Below, piece after piece: positions 17,940-26,311 of a stretch of 64,000 nucleotides of DNA; the stretch's first letter is position 1, and every line of letters begins with the position of its first letter. Source of the DNA: Patescibacteria group bacterium (GTDB lineage: Bacteria > Patescibacteriota > UBA1384 > GWA2-35-9 > JBASTP01). Below the pieces are notes generated by a model. The model worked only from the letters and a program-made list of their open reading frames with translations. It was not told the DNA's origin and made no database searches. A program made the position numbers and the translations under genes. Where the stretch lies: NCBI GenBank assembly GCA_049274945.1, contig JBASTP010000009.1:4441-68440 (forward strand), written 5' to 3'.

Positions 17940-18413
17940 ATGGTAATCATCTCAAAATCCGAGGATCGGTTTGAAATTAAAACCAAGACATCAACCATCA
18001 CCACGGGCGAAACTGTTTCGATTAACGGCGTCGAACTGGTGGGGCCGGGCGAGTACGAAATCGGCGATTGCAAAATTCTCGGCATCCCCCCATCGGTGTA
18101 CCTCATCGAATCGGAAGATTTGCGCATCGCCTACCTTGATCGGCTTTCAGATATGTTGAGTGAAGATCAAATCGAGGCGCTCTCCGAGCCCGATATTCTT
18201 TTTGTGCCAACCGGCGGGAGCGGCACGCTCGATCCCAAATCCGCGGAGCGGCTGGTGGCGCTCATCGATCCAAAAATTGTGATTCCCATGCTGGGAGATA
18301 TTGCGTCAGTTGTTAAGCAGCTCGGTGGCACATCGGAAGAGCTCAGCCAGTTAAAAATTACCCGCCAAAGCTTGCCCCAAGACGGGCGCCGTGTCGTGGT
18401 ACTAAAGCCATGA
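17940..18413 (+). CDS. Small MBL-fold-like hydrolase (Lactamase_B_3/UlaG-like, weak)
   Basis: 157 aa; LFVPTGGSGTLDPKSAERLVALIDPKIVIPM resembles the C-terminus of short MBL-fold proteins; translationally coupled (ATGA) to nrnA. Confidence 0.45.
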   Translation: MVIISKSEDRFEIKTKTSTITTGETVSINGVELVGPGEYEIGDCKILGIPPSVYLIESEDLRIAYLDRLSDMLSEDQIEALSEPDILFVPTGGSGTLDPKSAERLVALIDPKIVIPMLGDIASVVKQLGGTSEELSQLKITRQSLPQDGRRVVVLKP

Positions 18414-19381
18414 ACGGAGCGTTAGCTCAAGTTGTTGATCTCATTACCAATCTCGATCGTATCTTACTATTGGTCCACCTCGAGCCCGATGGCGACACGC
18501 TCGCTTCTTCACTCGCCCTCGCGGCATCCATCCGCCAGCTCGGCAAATCGGTGGTAGTGGCTGGCCGCGATCCGGTGCCGGGCGTGTTCCAATTTTTGCC
18601 CGGCGCCTACACCATTACCAACGATTTTCTGCTTTCTGACTACGAGCTCGTGGCCGTGATCGACTGCGGCGATCTGAGGCGCACCGGATTTCCGGAACGG
18701 CTTATTCAGTTTGCCAAAACCAAAGGGCGGTTAGTAAACATTGATCATCACGGAAGATCTGATCTTCATAAAATTGCGAATGTTAATTTTTGGGATCCTC
18801 AGGCCTGCGCCGCCGGCCAGTTGGTAATAGCAATAATAGACGGATTGGGTGCCGACATCACCGGCGACATTGCCACGTGCCTGCTCACCGCGATTTATAC
18901 CGACACCGGCGGGTTTCGCCACGCCAACACCACCCCCTCAACGTTGCGCCTCGCCGCGCGCCTTTTGAACGAGGGCGCGCGGTTACGAGAGATCACCGAG
19001 CATTTACTTAACTCAAAATCAATTGCCTCGCTTCGCCTGCTGGGCCTCGTGCTCTCGCGGATCAAACGGTTCCGCAAACTGGGCCTCGTGTCTTCGTTCG
19101 TTACCCACCACGACCTCGAGCGGCTGGGGGGTTCGCCAACCGATTTGGCGGGGGCGGTCAACGTGATTGGCCAAACGCCCGGCGCCAAGGCCTCAATTCT
19201 CTTTACTGAAGTTGACGACGGCAAGCTTAAGGCCTCAATCCGCACCGAGACCGATGGCGTTGACGTTTCCCAGTTCGCCGAGATTTTTGGCGGCGGCGGC
19301 CACCGCCGCGCCTCGGGTTTTCTAATCGATGGCAAAATTATCCGTAAAGGCAGGAAGTTTGAAATCGACCTCCCAAGCTAA
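18410..19381 (+). CDS. nrnA: DHH/DHHA1 phosphoesterase (NrnA-like oligoribonuclease / pAp phosphatase)
   Basis: LLVHLEPDGDTLASSLALA (DHH motif), IDHHGRSD, C-terminal GGGGHRRASG (DHHA1). Confidence 0.8.
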   Translation: MNGALAQVVDLITNLDRILLLVHLEPDGDTLASSLALAASIRQLGKSVVVAGRDPVPGVFQFLPGAYTITNDFLLSDYELVAVIDCGDLRRTGFPERLIQFAKTKGRLVNIDHHGRSDLHKIANVNFWDPQACAAGQLVIAIIDGLGADITGDIATCLLTAIYTDTGGFRHANTTPSTLRLAARLLNEGARLREITEHLLNSKSIASLRLLGLVLSRIKRFRKLGLVSSFVTHHDLERLGGSPTDLAGAVNVIGQTPGAKASILFTEVDDGKLKASIRTETDGVDVSQFAEIFGGGGHRRASGFLIDGKIIRKGRKFEIDLPS

Positions 19382-20009
19382 CCTCGTTGCCGAAACGATC
19401 GCCACTTACGATAGAACGGCGGACGTTTACGCGGCCGGCACCGTGGATGAAGTTCGCAAAACCCGCCCAATGGCCGAGTGGTTTATCGAACGGTTAGGTG
19501 GCAAAAAGGTTATTGAAATTGGTTGCGGCCCGGGCTACGATGCCAAGCATTTTTCCGAGCACGGGCTCGCACTCACGGCCATCGATCTTTCGGCTGGCTT
19601 TGTGGCGATGGCTGCCAAACGCGCCCCAAAAGCGCGCGTATTGAAGATGGACATGCGTCACCTCAAATTCCCGCCCCATGGGTTTGACGGCATTTGGGCA
19701 ATGGCATCATTTCTCCACGTGCCCAAATTAGAGGGCGAAAAAACCCTGCGTGGCTTTAAGCGCGTGCTCAAGCCCGGCGGGTTGCTGTTTATTTCCGTAA
19801 AAATCGGCCAGGGTGAAAAAGTGATCAGCAAGAAACGCTACGGTGGCGGTGTTCGCAACCACGGCGGCATTAAGTTTTTCGCCTATTACAGCGAGCGAGG
19901 TTTTAAACAATTACTCAAACGCTGCGGGTTTACCATTCTCAAAACCGCGATCACCAAAAACCGCTACGAAGACCCGTTCATTAACGTATTTGCGAAAAAG
20001 GACCTCTAG
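19329..20009 (+). CDS. Class I SAM-dependent methyltransferase (start uncertain; alternative ATG at 19470)
   Basis: KVIEIGCGPGYDAKHF motif I, LKPGGLLFISV; the 5' 53 nt overlap nrnA. Confidence 0.7.
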   Translation: MAKLSVKAGSLKSTSQANLVAETIATYDRTADVYAAGTVDEVRKTRPMAEWFIERLGGKKVIEIGCGPGYDAKHFSEHGLALTAIDLSAGFVAMAAKRAPKARVLKMDMRHLKFPPHGFDGIWAMASFLHVPKLEGEKTLRGFKRVLKPGGLLFISVKIGQGEKVISKKRYGGGVRNHGGIKFFAYYSERGFKQLLKRCGFTILKTAITKNRYEDPFINVFAKKDL

Positions 20010-20253
20010 CTATTTCCGCTTGCGGGTTTTGGCGTCGCGGATGAGCACTCCGCCTTTAACGCGGCTCACATTTAGCTTTTGCTTGCGCCGCCACCCGAGT
20101 GAATTTACGAGAGCCTTGGGCAAAGTAATGTAGTTCGTGTATTTACCCAGTTCTCCAATTTTTCTGACGTATGCCATGCTATATAGGGTACTATATAATA
20201 CTTATATACTATATTATATAGTATCTCCCGATCGTCGTCAACTCCATAATAAC

Positions 20254-21435
20254 TTAACGCTCGTAGGTTGTGGGTTTCGAGAATGATCCGCTGCCTGAGC
20301 AGCTAGCTTGGGTGAGTTCGACTTGCATGGTGGTGGCGTTCGTTAGCTGGATAAGTAACGATCCGCTGCGGGCGATATTGCCAGAGCCCGGTTGGGCATC
20401 GGTCTGGTAGCAGTACACGGTGCCATCGGGTTTTACCTCACTAAACTCGCGATTGATCGTGCCCTCGTGTTTTGGCATAAACGCAATCTTAGTGGGGCTA
20501 CCAATCACTCCGCCGATCGAAGCAATACCCACTGATGGATCAAAGTTATCGTGAACGAGGGCAATACTTTTATCCCAGTTACCCGGTTGATCAATCAGAT
20601 CGCTGGCTTTTACGCCGGTAATCCAGTCGCCTTGGGCCGTTCCTGGAACGTCCTGGTTCACCTCGCCGCAGCGCGGTTCGATGGTGCGTTTGGTTCGAGA
20701 CGACCCGAGTTTTTCATAGAGTGTGGCTTTAGTGGCTTCGTCAAACAAATCGAGCGGGCACACGAAGTGCAGGGCATCGGAGCGGTAGCGTTTGGGGTTA
20801 GCGTAGGGCTTGCCCGATTGCCGCCGATCAACCGCTTGAATGTCCAGGCCGGTTGCCGTGCCGCCCCCGGCGGTGCCGATGATTTCTCCAGCTTTCATGG
20901 CGTAGTTTAATTGGGCGCGGCAGTAGGTGTAGTCGTCGCCGGGCCGGGGCACCTGGGTATCACACGAGGGCCTCGCGGCTTCAAACGCCGCCTGCAATTG
21001 CGGCGAAATGCTCGTAACGTGGCCAAAGTTTAACCGCACGTCTTTGCACGCGGTAATATCGAGGGCGTAGTCATCGCTCCAAACCGCGCCTTGTTTTTTG
21101 GCGGTATTGTGATTGATCGATTGGACAACAATATCGCCCGGGGCGCGCACGGGCCTATCGTAGGCCGGATCGATGGTGTTGTTTTCTTTAATTACCACGT
21201 AGATGTGGTCGGTGGGGACGGTGTGGTCGGGCGGGCTCAAGTTACCCAGTGGGGTGATCGAAAGAAAATCTGTTGGGGCAATCGGGGAAGCGGTAAACAT
21301 GCCGCCAGGGGCGCACTCTGGCCCACCAATGGTATTTACTAGTTTAGGTGTACGCCGGCGTAGTTCACCGACCACCATCGTAAAAAATACCGCGACCAAG
21401 ATAACAACTAACCCAACGACAATTTTTTTGAGCAT
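20254..21435 (-). CDS. Membrane-anchored/secreted hypothetical protein
   Basis: N-terminal TM MLKKIVVGLVVILVAVFFTMVV; 393 aa, Gly/Thr/Ser-rich extracytoplasmic part; no family recognised. Confidence 0.55.
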   Translation of the reverse strand: MLKKIVVGLVVILVAVFFTMVVGELRRRTPKLVNTIGGPECAPGGMFTASPIAPTDFLSITPLGNLSPPDHTVPTDHIYVVIKENNTIDPAYDRPVRAPGDIVVQSINHNTAKKQGAVWSDDYALDITACKDVRLNFGHVTSISPQLQAAFEAARPSCDTQVPRPGDDYTYCRAQLNYAMKAGEIIGTAGGGTATGLDIQAVDRRQSGKPYANPKRYRSDALHFVCPLDLFDEATKATLYEKLGSSRTKRTIEPRCGEVNQDVPGTAQGDWITGVKASDLIDQPGNWDKSIALVHDNFDPSVGIASIGGVIGSPTKIAFMPKHEGTINREFSEVKPDGTVYCYQTDAQPGSGNIARSGSLLIQLTNATTMQVELTQASCSGSGSFSKPTTYER

Positions 21436-21502
21436 TCCCCCTCCTCGTTTCTTTGAGTGTACTGCAAGTTTTGATGCTACTCAATCCGCATGATTGCTGC
21501 AC

Positions 21503-21530
21503 AAAAAAAGCGGTCGCCGGAGGCGACCGC
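21503..21530 (-). terminator. Rho-independent terminator (minus strand) downstream of purB and a small ORF
   Basis: gcggtcgcc-gga-ggcgaccgc hairpin with an A-run on the + strand (T-run on the - strand). Confidence 0.6.
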
Positions 21531-21556
21531 CGATGCAATGGCGGAAGAAAGAGTGG

Positions 21557-21796
21557 TTACTCGCGAACGGCGAGACGGAGGAGATTCCGGTCGGTGAAAA
21601 AGTTCACGATTGTCAACCGATCTGGCAAGTGGGCAATCTCGATTAGCGAAAGCTTTCTATGGAACGCACACTCGTAGGCTTTTCTCGCTGCAGAAATGAA
21701 CGTTTCGTCACCACAGACCACGCCCCAGACTTCGCACCCGATGATTTCAGTAGTGAATGCGCCTTCGCGATGAGAGTTCCAATCGATATTTTCCAT
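21557..21796 (-). CDS. Small hypothetical protein (79 aa) between purB and its terminator
   Basis: ORF placed exactly between the purB stop and the minus-strand terminator; no homology recognised. Confidence 0.3.
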   Translation of the reverse strand: MENIDWNSHREGAFTTEIIGCEVWGVVCGDETFISAARKAYECAFHRKLSLIEIAHLPDRLTIVNFFTDRNLLRLAVRE

Positions 21797-21808
21797 AGCA
21801 AGCTCGTC

Positions 21809-23287
21809 TCACTTTCCGAGGATTTCCCGATACAGCACACCCTCGTTTCGCAGGAGATATTCAAAATCGAATACTCTGTTCCACTGCGCTTGCGCCGTTG
21901 CGTCTTCGAATATTGCCGCTAAGCATTCATTCCACCGCCCAACAGTAGCTTGGTCGACTGCCAGTTGGTCCGAGGTGCGCAACTGTGCGTGTAAAATTAA
22001 CGTCTGGATTGATACCGGTTCTGGCAAAAGTAGCAATTCCTGCATCCCAGCTTGGGCGTTGGCAAGCGATGAAGATCGTTCATTCCGGAGTTGCCTTGCT
22101 GCCTCCGATGGCTCAAAAACATTGGCGGCCGCGAGCTTAACAATTCGGTAGGAATCCTCTGCGGTTAAGCCATGTTGTTCGCCGAACTCCTCAAGTATTT
22201 CTTTGGCCACCGAGGCGGCGTAGGTGCCGCGCGATTCGACGATCTCGAGAAGCATGACATCTGGCCGAACTACCAAACCCTCGAGCACCCGCACCATCGT
22301 CGAAACAGAATGAACGGTAACGTGGCACAAATCGGCCCAAGCCACCCGCTCGACCGATGATTGTTCAATGGCGCGCTCCTCCCACGTGATGGCGTTGCCT
22401 TCGATCATTTCCAAGAAGCCTTTCGCCATCCGCCACATGCCCTCGATCTTTTCCGTGTTGATGGTGTTTTTCTTGTGGGGCATGGCAGAGGAACCGGTTT
22501 GTTTTTTGCCGAATGGTTCCTGGACGATGGGGTAACCACTGCGGGCTGCCAGGCGGATATCAAGCGCAATCTGCTGGAGCGCGGTGACAAGGTCGTAAAC
22601 TGCTCGACCGAGCGGCAGAAAGAGGCTCCGAGGCAGAATCTGGGTAGCGCCGTAGTAGGGCTCGAGCTTGAGGATTTTTAGCGCCTCGCGCTCTACCTCG
22701 GGTGAAACGCCAGTGTAGTTACCTACTGCGCCAGAGAGTTTGGAATATTTGAGTTCGGTAATTGCCCTATCTAACGCTCGCAGCGCACTATTTAGCAATC
22801 GGAACCAGGAAAGGCAGCGCTTGCCGAAGCTCTGCAAGTCGGCCCACTGGCCATGGGTTCGGCCGATCATTGGCGTGTAGCGGTACTCATGGGCAAGATC
22901 TCGTAAGACATTCAAGGCTGTATGGCTGATTTCTGCAATGTGTAAACCAGCTTCCTTAAGCGTCAGCACGAAGCCTGATTCCTCGGTGTCGTACGAGGTA
23001 AGTCCCTGGTGCCAGAACTTTTGGAGTGGGACTGGTATCCACCGGAGTCTTTCATCCAGCCAGGCCTGCAGGTCGTGGTGGATTTGCCCTTCGCGATCGT
23101 GCCACCAGTTAATGTCGCATGGCCGACTGTTCAGCATCATGAATACCGCGTTGTAAGTACCTTTTGGGTAGTTTCCCAGTTTTTCCTGAGCGGCGATCAC
23201 CGCGAGTTCGGTTTTCTGCCAACCGGCCACTTTGTGCTCTTCAGAGAAGATTTCACTGATTCTAGGATGAGCGTATCGTTTGATCAT
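21809..23287 (-). CDS. purB: Adenylosuccinate lyase
   Basis: MIKRYAHPRISEIFSEE N-terminus, TPMIGRTHGQWA, fumarate-lyase signature GSSAMPHKKNTINTE. Confidence 0.85.
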   Translation of the reverse strand: MIKRYAHPRISEIFSEEHKVAGWQKTELAVIAAQEKLGNYPKGTYNAVFMMLNSRPCDINWWHDREGQIHHDLQAWLDERLRWIPVPLQKFWHQGLTSYDTEESGFVLTLKEAGLHIAEISHTALNVLRDLAHEYRYTPMIGRTHGQWADLQSFGKRCLSWFRLLNSALRALDRAITELKYSKLSGAVGNYTGVSPEVEREALKILKLEPYYGATQILPRSLFLPLGRAVYDLVTALQQIALDIRLAARSGYPIVQEPFGKKQTGSSAMPHKKNTINTEKIEGMWRMAKGFLEMIEGNAITWEERAIEQSSVERVAWADLCHVTVHSVSTMVRVLEGLVVRPDVMLLEIVESRGTYAASVAKEILEEFGEQHGLTAEDSYRIVKLAAANVFEPSEAARQLRNERSSSLANAQAGMQELLLLPEPVSIQTLILHAQLRTSDQLAVDQATVGRWNECLAAIFEDATAQAQWNRVFDFEYLLRNEGVLYREILGK

Positions 23288-23390
23288 TTATAGCTCAACT
23301 CCTTCTGTTGTCACGGTGCGGGACGATAACGTCACCCCTATTATGCCAAAATGATAAAAATATACTAGAGTACAGGTTCTGCAGATTTTT

Positions 23391-23474
23391 TGGTGCCGGG
23401 GGCGAGATTCGAACTCGCAAGCCTTTCGGCAAGGGATTTTAAGTCCCTCGTGTATACCATTCCACCACCCCGGC
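23391..23474 (-). tRNA. tRNA-Leu (anticodon TAA), type II, CCA encoded
   Basis: Reverse complement reads GCCGGGGTGGTGGAATGGTATACAC G AGGGA CTTAAAA TCCCT ...GCGAGTTCGAATCTCGC CCCCGGC ACCA. Confidence 0.9.
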
Positions 23475-23517
23475 TAAACGAATTTTATCGAACATTAACT
23501 CCTGATACAATAAGGTA

Positions 23518-23766
23518 ATGATCTTTTTTACAAAGCACGCCCGCGAGAAATTTAAAGTTCTCAAGGCGCACAAGTTTTCGGTAACGCGATCCAAGGTGAT
23601 GAAAACTTTGCGTGATCCTGACCACATCGACCGCTCGCGTTTTCCAATCCTGATTGCCGAGCGTGGATTTGACGAACAGAGGGTGTTACGGGTAGTATAT
23701 AAACGAGAAGGGAACGATATTACTGTTATCACATTTTACCCAGCAAAAAGGGGTCGCTATGAATAA
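23518..23766 (+). CDS. DUF4258-family protein (putative toxin of a DUF4258/DUF2283 pair)
   Basis: FTKHAREKFKVLKAHKFSVTRSKVMKTL...VLRVVYKREGNDITVITFYPAKRG matches the DUF4258 pattern (HA.eR...gis..ev...l / ViTvY). Confidence 0.65.
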   Translation: MIFFTKHAREKFKVLKAHKFSVTRSKVMKTLRDPDHIDRSRFPILIAERGFDEQRVLRVVYKREGNDITVITFYPAKRGRYE

Positions 23767-23995
23767 ACCACACCCAAAAATCCGTTATGAATCCCAAGCC
23801 GATGTGCTGAGTTATGAGCTTACCAAAGAGCCGATTGACCATGCGGAGGAAATTGGCAATTTTATTGTTCACTTTACCGAAGATAACTCCCCGGTATTGG
23901 TGGAAATCTTGAACGCGCGGGAGTTCTTGGATAGTTCGGGCAGCTTAGTTCACAAGGGTTCTCAGAAATCTTCAAAACTGGCCCCAGTACGATAA
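23759..23995 (+). CDS. DUF2283-family protein (putative antitoxin partner)
   Basis: IRYESQADVLSYELTKEPIDHAEEIGNFIVHFTEDNSPVLVEILNAREF matches DUF2283 (MKITYDxEADaLYIxL...GIEIL); overlaps upstream gene by 8 nt. Confidence 0.65.
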   Translation: MNKPHPKIRYESQADVLSYELTKEPIDHAEEIGNFIVHFTEDNSPVLVEILNAREFLDSSGSLVHKGSQKSSKLAPVR

Positions 23996-24017
23996 TTTCT
24001 GCTACAATCGTACTACG

Positions 24018-24686
24018 ATGCAACGAGTCTTGATTAAGTGGTCTATGACGGTGGTGGTGCTCTTTGTGGCAATGTTGGCATTGTTCAACGTACGGCCCGG
24101 TCTTTTTGCCGACGCTGTCTATCCTCTAAAGTTCAAAAGCGAGATTGTGGCTGCCGCAGAAGAGTTCCACCTACGCCGCACCTTGATCGCCGCGCTGATT
24201 TTCACCGAAAGCCGATTTAAGGAAGGGTGTCCTAAATCAAATCGGGGGGCAATCGGGCTAACCCAAATGCTGCCCTCTACTGCCGCTGGGGTAGCTCAAA
24301 ATCTGGGAGTGGCGGATTTTTCAGTGCAAAAACTCTGTTCTGATCCAAGTCTCGCGATTCGGCTCGGAACGGCTTATTTGCGCTCGGCTTACGACCGGGC
24401 AATTGGCAAGGGTGCAACTCCCGAACTCGCCGAGCGAGTGGCGCTCGCCCACTATAATGGCGGCCCGCGGGCCGCGGACGTGCTGCTTGCGACCAATAAG
24501 ACTGCCGGGCTAGCCAACGAAACAAGGAAGTTTGTGCCTCTTGTGCTCGATCGGGAGAAAGTATATCTCGAACTCTACGGCGATGATTGGGGCGGGGAAG
24601 TGGAAGAACCGTTTGCCTTTAAACCGGGCCAGAACATCTTTAACTTACTTGATCCTAACAAGCTTGCAGCATTTCTAGGTTCGTGA
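24018..24686 (+). CDS. Lytic transglycosylase (SLT domain), membrane anchored
   Basis: ALIFTESRFKEGCPKSNRGAIGLTQMLPSTAAG...AYLRSAYD...ALAHYNGGP. Confidence 0.8.
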   Translation: MQRVLIKWSMTVVVLFVAMLALFNVRPGLFADAVYPLKFKSEIVAAAEEFHLRRTLIAALIFTESRFKEGCPKSNRGAIGLTQMLPSTAAGVAQNLGVADFSVQKLCSDPSLAIRLGTAYLRSAYDRAIGKGATPELAERVALAHYNGGPRAADVLLATNKTAGLANETRKFVPLVLDREKVYLELYGDDWGGEVEEPFAFKPGQNIFNLLDPNKLAAFLGS

Positions 24687-26311
24687 TGACATCGCAAGAT
24701 ATTCGTGACAAATTTGTAGCGTTTTTCAAGGAGAAAGGACACACCGAACTACCTGCTTCTTCGCTCGTACCTACCGATCCATCGGTGCTGTTTACCACTG
24801 CCGGGATGCAGCAATTTAAGGAGTGGTTTGTTAAACCCGAACTCGCCAAGCATAAACGGGTGGTGACGATTCAACCGTGCCTGCGCACCTCGGATATCGA
24901 AGCAGTGGGCGACGAGACTCACCTAACTTATTTTGAAATGCTCGGCAATTTTTCGTTTGGTGTTTACGGTAAAAAAGAAGCCATCGAATATGCGCTCGAA
25001 TGGTTCAGAAAAGATTTCGGAGTTGAGGAATCAATGCTCACTTTTTCTTACTTCGGCGGCGAGGGGGTATTGGAGGAAGATAGCGAATCACGAGCAATAC
25101 TGTTTGACCGGCTCGACCCCAAGTCGATAGAAAAAAAGGGAAGAAGCGACAATTTTTGGGGTCCGACCGGGGATACTGGGCCATGTGGGCCGACCGTAGA
25201 GTTCTATTACAAAGGCATCGAAATTTGGAATCTGGTATTTAATGAATATTTTTTCGACGGGAACAATTATAAAAAACTGGAAAAACTGGGCATCGATACC
25301 GGTGCCGGATTGGAGAGAATTGCAGCGACGTTAAACGGCTTCGAAAGTGTTTTCGAAACCGATGAGCTAAAAGCCCTCTTGGATATACTCCCCGAGGGCG
25401 ACCTGCGCTCGCGGCGGATTATTGTTGACCACGTCCGGGCGATCAACGGTTTGATAGGAGACGGGGTTATACCATCGAACAAAGCCCAGGGCGCGGTGCT
25501 GCGCCGGCTCATTCGCCGCGCGTTTACCCACGGCCGGCTGATTAGCGCGGACGATGATTTAGTAGCACAGTTGGTTAGTAGCACTGTAGCACGGATAGTG
25601 AAAACCGAGGTTGAAAAATTTTCCCAAACTCTGAAACAATCTATGAAAATCTATTCTCGAATTCTCGAGAAATCAAGAAAAGAAATTTCTGGTGAAGATG
25701 CTTTCCTACTCAAGGAAAGTTATGGCTTACCTGTCGAGTTAACGCAGGAATTGGCTCGCAAAGATGGTTATTCTGTTGACATGGCTGGTTTTCAACTTTA
25801 TGAATTAAAACATGTCGAGGCATCTGCCATGAGCTCTCCTGTCAAATTCAAAGGTGGGCTTGTTGAAAGAACCCCGGAAACAACTCGCTTGCACACAGCC
25901 CACCACTTATTACTCGCCGCGTTGCGAAAGGTGCTTGGCGAGCATGTAGTGCAGCGCGGGTCCAATATTACATCTGATCGTCTCCGAATCGATTTCTCAC
26001 ACCCCCGAGGCGTGAAGGAGGAAGAATTACGTAAAGTTGAAAAGTTGGTTAATCAATGGATTAAAGACGATCTTGAAGTTACGCGCGAAGAAATGTCGTT
26101 GCAAGAAGCGTTCAAAAAAGGCGCCCTGGGCGAATTCGGCGCGACCTATCCGGAAAAAGTGAGTGTGTATAGCATTGGTAATCCTCCAGTGTCGGTCGAA
26201 ATTTGCGGCGGGCCTCATGTGACAAAAACATCAGAAATCGGCAAGTTTAGAATAGTGAAAGAAGAATCATCGGGGTCTGGCATTAGACGGATAAGGGCAG
26301 TCCTTGACTAG
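24683..26311 (+). CDS. alaS: Alanine--tRNA ligase, compact form (catalytic + tRNA-recognition + editing domains, no C-Ala domain)
   Basis: FVAFFKEKGHTELPASSLVP...SVLFTTAGMQQFK...RVVTIQPCLRTSDIEAVGDETHLTYFEMLGNFSFG; editing-domain HTAHHLL...ICGGPHV; only 542 aa. Confidence 0.8.
   Translation: MMTSQDIRDKFVAFFKEKGHTELPASSLVPTDPSVLFTTAGMQQFKEWFVKPELAKHKRVVTIQPCLRTSDIEAVGDETHLTYFEMLGNFSFGVYGKKEAIEYALEWFRKDFGVEESMLTFSYFGGEGVLEEDSESRAILFDRLDPKSIEKKGRSDNFWGPTGDTGPCGPTVEFYYKGIEIWNLVFNEYFFDGNNYKKLEKLGIDTGAGLERIAATLNGFESVFETDELKALLDILPEGDLRSRRIIVDHVRAINGLIGDGVIPSNKAQGAVLRRLIRRAFTHGRLISADDDLVAQLVSSTVARIVKTEVEKFSQTLKQSMKIYSRILEKSRKEISGEDAFLLKESYGLPVELTQELARKDGYSVDMAGFQLYELKHVEASAMSSPVKFKGGLVERTPETTRLHTAHHLLLAALRKVLGEHVVQRGSNITSDRLRIDFSHPRGVKEEELRKVEKLVNQWIKDDLEVTREEMSLQEAFKKGALGEFGATYPEKVSVYSIGNPPVSVEICGGPHVTKTSEIGKFRIVKEESSGSGIRRIRAVLD

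Follow-up and report, generated by a model that had tools for sequence, protein, structure and literature searches.

A DUF4258-like and DUF2283 gene pair beside tRNA-Leu(taa) in a Patescibacteria genome: a probable type II toxin-antitoxin cassette in a variable slot

Proteins with the DUF4258 domain have been listed among the toxins of toxin-antitoxin (TA) systems that belong to the RelE/ParE superfamily, in a compilation where the entry for their activity reads 'unknown' and carries no references (Gerdes 2025, PMC11980606). Ntox49, described earlier with a conserved H and a conserved [KR] (Zhang et al. 2012, PMC3482391), overlaps with DUF4258 or is equivalent to it, and a 2026 preprint moved DUF4258 to the colicin-like BECR branch and equated it with Ntox49 (bioRxiv 10.64898/2026.08.28.747851). 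CdiA-CTs that carry DUF4258 are annotated 'tRNase (?)' (PMC11630599). The partners published for DUF4258 are HicB (Synechocystis slr1421/ssr2377), MqsA fusions, genes in antitoxin-first order, or partners left unnamed. In the literature that we searched there was no biochemical study of any DUF4258 or DUF2283 protein, and the two domains were never mentioned together. Genomic islands in tRNA genes can include TA modules, an example being the HipAB-stabilised island in a tRNA-Trp gene (PMC8978831). At the same time, a hypothesis cited in the literature holds that reduced genomes largely lack TA modules, and Patescibacteria are thought to be poor in them.

The pair described here lies in a stretch of 64,000 nt of Patescibacteria DNA (the window, meaning the whole stretch that was analysed). 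An earlier note on this DNA had reported two small overlapping open reading frames beside a tRNA-Leu(TAA), and both their coordinates and the gene content proved right. The first gene, T (23518–23766, plus strand), encodes 82 aa with a computed pI of 10.4, and the second, A (23759–23995, plus strand), encodes 78 aa with a computed pI of 5.7, so that the charges of the two products are complementary. The co-oriented frames overlap by 8 nt (ATGAATAA), and direct reading shows a Shine-Dalgarno-like AAGGGG at 23748–23753 (plus strand), within the T frame and 5 nt ahead of the ATG of A; the overlap and the position of this site suggest translational coupling of A to T. Downstream of the pair, the SLT lytic transglycosylase gene that had also been reported is present at 24018–24686 (plus strand), starting 22 nt past A, and a short AlaRS gene (24683–26311, plus strand) comes next. 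Both were identified by Pfam, and together they form a conserved right-hand backbone (24018–26311) that is syntenic in the related loci L001, L010, L015, L096, L130, L136 and L154.

On the left-hand side, ARAGORN places the tRNA-Leu(taa) at 23391–23474 on the minus strand (Rfam tRNA, 61.7 bits), with its 5' end towards the toxin gene and an AT-rich spacer of 43 nt before T. The pair had been described as lying 3' of the tRNA, which holds in window coordinates only: it sits at the 5' end of the tRNA and is divergent from it. Comparison of tRNA sequences shows that this tRNA has a GCGAG-type T-arm, the same type as in L015, L130 and L136. A purB-like lyase gene (within 19329–23390, minus strand; TIGR00928, 279 bits, below the cutoff of 326) lies upstream of the tRNA and on the same strand. 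Positions 22529–26288 of the window recur with 100% identity in L167, an independent Logan assembly, which means that the junction of purB (minus), tRNA (minus) and T is real and not an artefact of MAG assembly. T and A together are AT-richer than purB, as had been noticed (45.2% versus 53.7% GC), but this is no clear anomaly, since their GC content falls at the 11th percentile of windows of the same size (mean of the whole window 51.2%, sd 5.0; AlaRS 47.5%). The GC dip was considered as a sign of foreign origin and dropped, as it is not a clear outlier.

The earlier assignment of the pair to DUF4258 and DUF2283 stood without reservation for A (32.4 bits against a cutoff of 23) and in a weaker form for T, which on its own scores below the cutoff of PF14076 DUF4258 (17.7 against 25 bits; E = 0.0044). 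At the same time, model positions 1–70 of 71 are aligned with T, and PF14076 is matched by 44 of the 52 members of the T clade at E ≤ 0.01, with a best value of 1.4e-7; five of the 52 match the phage BECR family PBECR3. The full-model alignment and the matches in the clade make T a divergent member of the DUF4258 radiation, and by sequence comparison T is homologous to DUF4258 even though it formally falls short of the curated threshold. A protein identical to T, from a Patescibacteria MAG, is named 'DUF4258 domain-containing protein' in NCBI. A word-index search gave 109 homologues at 40–63% identity, mostly from Patescibacteria MAGs, and an exhaustive profile search gave 694 T-family clusters (50% identity) at E ≤ 1e-3; the best 150 of these 694 are mostly stand-alone proteins of about 80–90 aa, with a maximum of 134 aa. 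Neither T nor A had a match in NCBIfam, PADLOC or PHROGs, a scan of viral contigs for the toxin yielded no relatives, and a PDB sequence search with T and A as single proteins and with the clade profiles returned nothing meaningful.

The AF2 model of T (pLDDT 93.5) has the elements E-H-H-E-E-E-E, a predicted BECR (RelE/colicin-like) RNase fold: in the model, two N-terminal helices lie on an antiparallel sheet, together with the conserved H and K/R, as is the case for BECR proteins, whose sheet has 4–5 strands. T carries every residue that at least 90% of its clade conserve: H7 and K11 fall within helix 1 of the model, R58 and Y61 within a central strand, T72 and Y74 within the final strand, and Y81 close to the C-terminus. 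T also has the C-terminal VITFY strand, as in DUF4258, but its E48 replaces the Q that is usual in the clade. The conserved residues are consistent with the 'H, [KR]' signature of Ntox49 (PMC3482391), and their placement in the model would be compatible with an RNase site of the RelE or colicin type.

A matches PF10049 DUF2283 (COG 'YuzE') with E = 1e-7 over model positions 1–49 of 49. Nearly all matches of the profile search with A were already annotated as PF10049, and the identical protein in NCBI, again from a Patescibacteria MAG, is named 'DUF2283 domain-containing protein'. The predicted model of A consists of five beta strands (residues 7–51), a C-terminal helix (53–70) and a disordered tail. 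A fold search with this model found no significant relative and no recognisable DNA-binding fold, and A would therefore have less in common with a classical autorepressing antitoxin than with an immunity protein. An antitoxin with a DNA-binding domain and autorepression is typical of type II TA systems, though not universal among them, and judging from its model A appears to lack this trait. Weak fold leads for A were the CdiI chain 7vmc_C and YtpR in 9a77_B. The domain of FseA/QseM is one that we take to be DUF2285 and not DUF2283. The reading of DUF2283 as the transcription-activator domain of FseA/QseM (PMC4755241) was set aside, the beta-rich model of A being unlike a helical regulator.

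When one genome of each GTDB species was scanned with an alignment of 14 close toxin sequences, 80 loci were returned, from Patescibacteria, Chloroflexota, Desulfobacterota, Nitrospirota, Bathyarchaeia and others. With ORF-based gene calls in the fetched loci, a DUF2283 ORF lies directly downstream of the toxin gene and on the same strand in 79 of the 80, usually overlapping it. Small, adjacent, co-oriented genes whose pairing is conserved in unrelated genomes are what is expected of a type II TA system, and this is what T and A present. Five of the 80 loci have a broken toxin gene (a TAG at Q48 in L010, a TAA at position 50 in L035, and truncations in L058, L059 and L065), and the antitoxin core is intact in all five. 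Invariant pairing across phyla together with decay of the toxin first is the pattern predicted for a toxin-antitoxin addiction pair, so that the TA-like reading with which the earlier note had begun has been strengthened. The pairing itself is plain to see in genomes, and database annotation already implies it.

An extended -10 promoter-like motif, TGATACAAT, is found at 23503–23511 (plus strand), 6 nt before the ATG of T. TGnTAnAAT occurs eight times in the window, and five of the occurrences stand 6–9 nt ahead of the ATG of ORFs that encode at least 60 aa, including SLT, for which the motif search located its own copy, TGCTACAAT, at 24000–24008 (plus strand); one occurrence precedes a tRNA-Leu(gag). 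This distribution suggests that leaderless transcription may be common in the host genome and that T-A may have its own promoter in the window, and the T-A transcript would be leaderless or near-leaderless if it starts from the extended -10 motif. A scan of 23200–24200 for standard sigma-70 -35/-10 promoters and for terminators gave nothing above chance, and none at TGATACAAT. An internal antitoxin promoter within T (23669–23698) was rejected, as the candidate was at chance level and L001 does not share its -10.

Relatives share the backbone DHH – tRNA-Leu(taa)(+) – [variable] – SLT – AlaRS. L010 and L015 have the order Lactamase_B_3 – DHH/DHHA1 – (HNH) – tRNA-Leu(taa)(+) – T – A – ... – SLT – AlaRS, with T-A in the slot of L010 and T-A plus a Methyltransf_33 gene in that of L015. 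Metagenomes were scanned with an AlaRS alignment, and T or A was found in none of the 80 closest loci (43–49% identity). SLT is directly upstream of AlaRS in five of these 80, and four of the five keep the tRNA: two, L136 and L154, are empty sites with tRNA-Leu(taa)(+) directly before SLT, and two hold other cargo between tRNA and SLT, a dihydroorotate-dehydrogenase-like (DHO_dh-like) gene in L096 and hypothetical genes in L130. The comparison of this tRNA-Leu locus across relatives, which had been proposed as a check on whether the pair belongs to the core genome, thus speaks against its being a core gene pair; the slot is a variable-cargo hotspot at the 3' flank of the tRNA in these relatives.

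Duplication of a tRNA 3' end is a classical signature of recombination at tRNA genes. L015 has a second, exact copy of the final 14 nt of its tRNA (TCTCGCCTCGGGCA) 1.46 kb downstream, and the two copies bracket T, A and Methyltransf_33. L010 has a degenerate copy of the tRNA 3' end between A and SLT, with 11 of 14 matches, a value reached in 5 of 5000 shuffles. The empty site of L154 contains a 23-nt fragment of a tRNA 3' end with a T-arm of the 'GCGAG' type, the intact tRNA there being of the 'GTGGG' type, and partial tRNA copies are also seen in L096 and L031. HNH genes lie just 5' of the tRNA in L010, L096 and L136. T-A stands at the 3' end of a tRNA in L001, L010, L015 and L021 but not in the window, where no att-like copy (direct repeat) of the tRNA 3' end was found. 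In agreement with what had been reported, Pfam scans of the neighbours showed no integrase within about 8 kb of the pair, and a jackhmmer search that took XerD as its seed, and so covered XerD-like integrases, was negative both for the window and for the tRNA-adjacent loci. One integrase match was seen among all loci, in L049 (Nitrospirota), which is unrelated to the tRNA-adjacent loci. The suggestion of a tRNA integration hotspot is therefore supported comparatively, through the tRNA-3'-end scars of L015, L010, L154, L096 and L031. As the window has an inverted tRNA and no att-like repeat, integrase or clear compositional anomaly, the case for an island remnant comes entirely from the relatives.

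The left flank of the window differs from that of the relatives, in which tRNA-Leu(taa)(+) follows directly after DHH or after DHH and an HNH gene. In the window, tblastn of the backbone proteins places Lactamase_B_3 at 17940–18404 and DHH at 18428–19372, and a window-specific segment of about 4 kb (19329–23390) lies between DHH and T; according to tblastn, Pfam/NCBIfam scans and the relatives' gene maps, it is absent from relatives. It contains a methyltransferase gene (plus strand), a MazE/AbrB-like ORF of 55 aa (minus strand), a 393-aa hypothetical protein (minus strand) and the purB-like lyase gene (minus strand). Inversion of about 20010–23474 would put tRNA(+) back beside DHH and the methyltransferase gene; the remaining genes would then be its 3' cargo, and T-A would come last. 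A search for inverted and direct repeats around 19200–24100 found nothing above chance, and with no inverted repeats at its ends such an inversion can only be conjectured.

The closest relative, L001, is a single contig of 1.9 kb with the same T-A-SLT-AlaRS order. Its toxin gene is preceded by a different tRNA 3' end, on the plus strand and 2–3 nt before the toxin ATG, which is of the GTGGG type and has its best match in the tRNA-Leu(taa) of L021; homology between L001 and the window starts at toxin codon 5. Third-codon-position identity between the two, measured on this one short contig, is 82% in T and 78% in A, compared with 50.5% in SLT and 56.5% in AlaRS, or 80% in T-A versus 53.5% in the flanks (Fisher p = 2.6e-9). 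Sliding nucleotide identity likewise shows a tract of high similarity at 23530–24100 (plus strand), its left edge at the same codon 5, with about 85–97% identity versus about 70–85% in the rest of SLT and in AlaRS. The excess of silent-site similarity over the flanks indicates that the cassette (about 23530–24100) has a more recent shared ancestor than its flanks have, and we take this pattern as evidence for lateral exchange or gene conversion at this site.

Association with tRNA genes is also seen more widely in the toxin family. A same-strand tRNA lies just upstream of 10 of the 80 toxin genes, compared with two of about 790 other genes of the same loci (Fisher p = 1.4e-9). The distance from the tRNA to the toxin ATG is 10–20 nt in seven of the ten loci and 50–145 nt in the other three, and the adjoining tRNAs are Leu-taa (three loci), Leu-caa, Leu-tag and Arg (two each) and Gly. 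In the toxin tree, the ten tRNA-adjacent toxins all belong to the half dominated by Patescibacteria, and sister toxins tend to have the same tRNA type. About 85% of the toxin loci have no adjacent tRNA.

We consider it likely that T-A is a two-gene type II toxin-antitoxin (addiction) cassette in the variable slot of a tRNA-Leu(taa) hotspot. T would be a small basic endoribonuclease of the BECR fold, from a DUF4258/Ntox49-like clade, that blocks translation by cutting RNA (ribosome-bound mRNA, or tRNA/rRNA), and A a small acidic DUF2283 protein that binds T and masks its active site, probably in the manner of an immunity protein, given that it appears to lack a DNA-binding domain. The two proteins would be made from one transcript, a nearly leaderless mRNA with translational coupling, probably started at the cassette's own extended -10 promoter. 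The cassette would occupy the slot between the conserved DHH and SLT-AlaRS genes in this Patescibacteria lineage, most likely as what is left of the cargo of a mobile insertion that decayed or was exchanged. Selection against losing A, or both genes, would keep it at a tRNA flank that is prone to recombination.

The linkage to tRNA genes could instead come from expression and not from integration, in that the cassette would be co-transcribed with the tRNA from the tRNA promoter, 3' processing would free a near-leaderless mRNA, selection for this function would favour a place beside a tRNA, and the scars would stem from unrelated events at the same hotspot. At seven loci an AT-rich spacer of only 10–20 nt, and in L001 one of 2–3 nt, separates the tRNA from the toxin start, too little to hold a promoter; the tRNAs are of at least seven species, which is hard to reconcile with one site-specific integrase, and no integrase is found near the tRNA-adjacent loci; moreover, autoregulation from a promoter of its own would seem unlikely for a pair whose antitoxin model has no DNA-binding fold. 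We nevertheless judge this explanation unlikely as a whole, as the window itself argues against co-transcription, with its inverted tRNA and a cassette that has its own extended -10 motif, and as the duplications of the tRNA 3' end in L015, L010, L154, L031 and L096, and the roughly 85% of toxin loci that have no adjacent tRNA, also speak against it. It is similarly doubtful, though conceivable, that the Patescibacteria DUF4258-DUF2283 lineage is a minimal, integrase-less mobile unit that homes to tRNA 3' ends and is expressed via tRNA transcription and processing; HNH endonucleases or gene conversion of tRNA 3' halves might then move the cassette, and the window would be a rearranged derivative with its own leaderless promoter.

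Another possibility is that T-A is an orphan polymorphic-toxin/immunity cassette, i.e. an Ntox49 tip with its immunity protein, used in inter-cellular competition or left over from it. DUF4258 does overlap with Ntox49, which is C-terminal in CdiA, Rhs and MafB toxins, but the 82-aa ORF of T is complete, has a start codon and a promoter-like motif to itself and shows no remnant of a pre-toxin or delivery region, no large CdiA/Rhs-type gene lies upstream at the window or at related loci, and among the best 150 of the 694 clusters the members are mostly stand-alone proteins of about 80–90 aa and not the tips of large toxins, which makes this origin very improbable. Still further from what is observed, and in our judgement barely credible, is the reading that the pair consists of a non-toxic enzyme with a housekeeping role in RNA processing and of its regulator, passed on vertically as part of the core genome. 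That L010 and L015 also have the pair at this tRNA-Leu(taa)-SLT-AlaRS site, despite an AlaRS identity of only about 45%, is what vertical inheritance would give; against it stand the absence of the pair from all 80 of the nearest AlaRS loci and the existence of empty sites, the patchy spread over bacterial phyla and archaea with unrelated neighbours, the nonsense and truncated toxins, and a silent-site similarity far above that of the flanks. A neighbour-joining tree also sets the toxin of the window apart from those of L010 and L015, although a tree of 82 aa has low resolution.

Under the preferred reading of an addiction cassette, the annotation label that we suggest for T-A is putative type II TA pair. 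The locus is an instance of a widespread uncharacterised pairing, that of a DUF4258-like BECR toxin with a DUF2283 protector, which recurs at tRNA genes; the habit of the Patescibacteria clade of lying at tRNA flanks is the only aspect that could go beyond the routine. With 82 and 78 aa, the pair offers a compact system for assigning function to two DUF families, for asking how an apparently beta-rich and non-DNA-binding protein might neutralise a BECR toxin, and for studying tRNA flanks as hotspots of exchange in streamlined genomes.

Compared with the DUF4258 toxins already listed in TA systems, T is likewise small, basic, stand-alone and predicted to have a BECR fold, with a small adjacent partner gene; it differs in scoring below the Pfam cutoff, in having DUF2283 as its partner and in its toxin-first order. 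The toxin-first order and the overlap or coupling of the genes are features that T-A has in common with BrnT/BrnA and HigB/HigA. At the same time, the identity of T to toxins of the BrnT/HigB type is only 10–19%, and BrnA and HigA have RHH or HTH folds and autoregulate, whereas the model of A has no such fold. In CdiA-CT (BECR tRNase)/CdiI, as apparently in T-A, the gene that comes right after the toxin codes for a globular protector lacking a DNA-binding domain; T-A, in contrast, has no delivery domain and no CdiB/CdiA context, and T stands alone. Finally, T-A differs from tRNA-gene islands with TA modules in that no integrase is nearby, in that the 'island' can be the pair of about 0.5 kb alone, and in that the tRNA of the window is inverted and without a repeat, and it resembles them in its variable slot, in its TA cargo and in the partial duplications of tRNA 3' ends seen in relatives.

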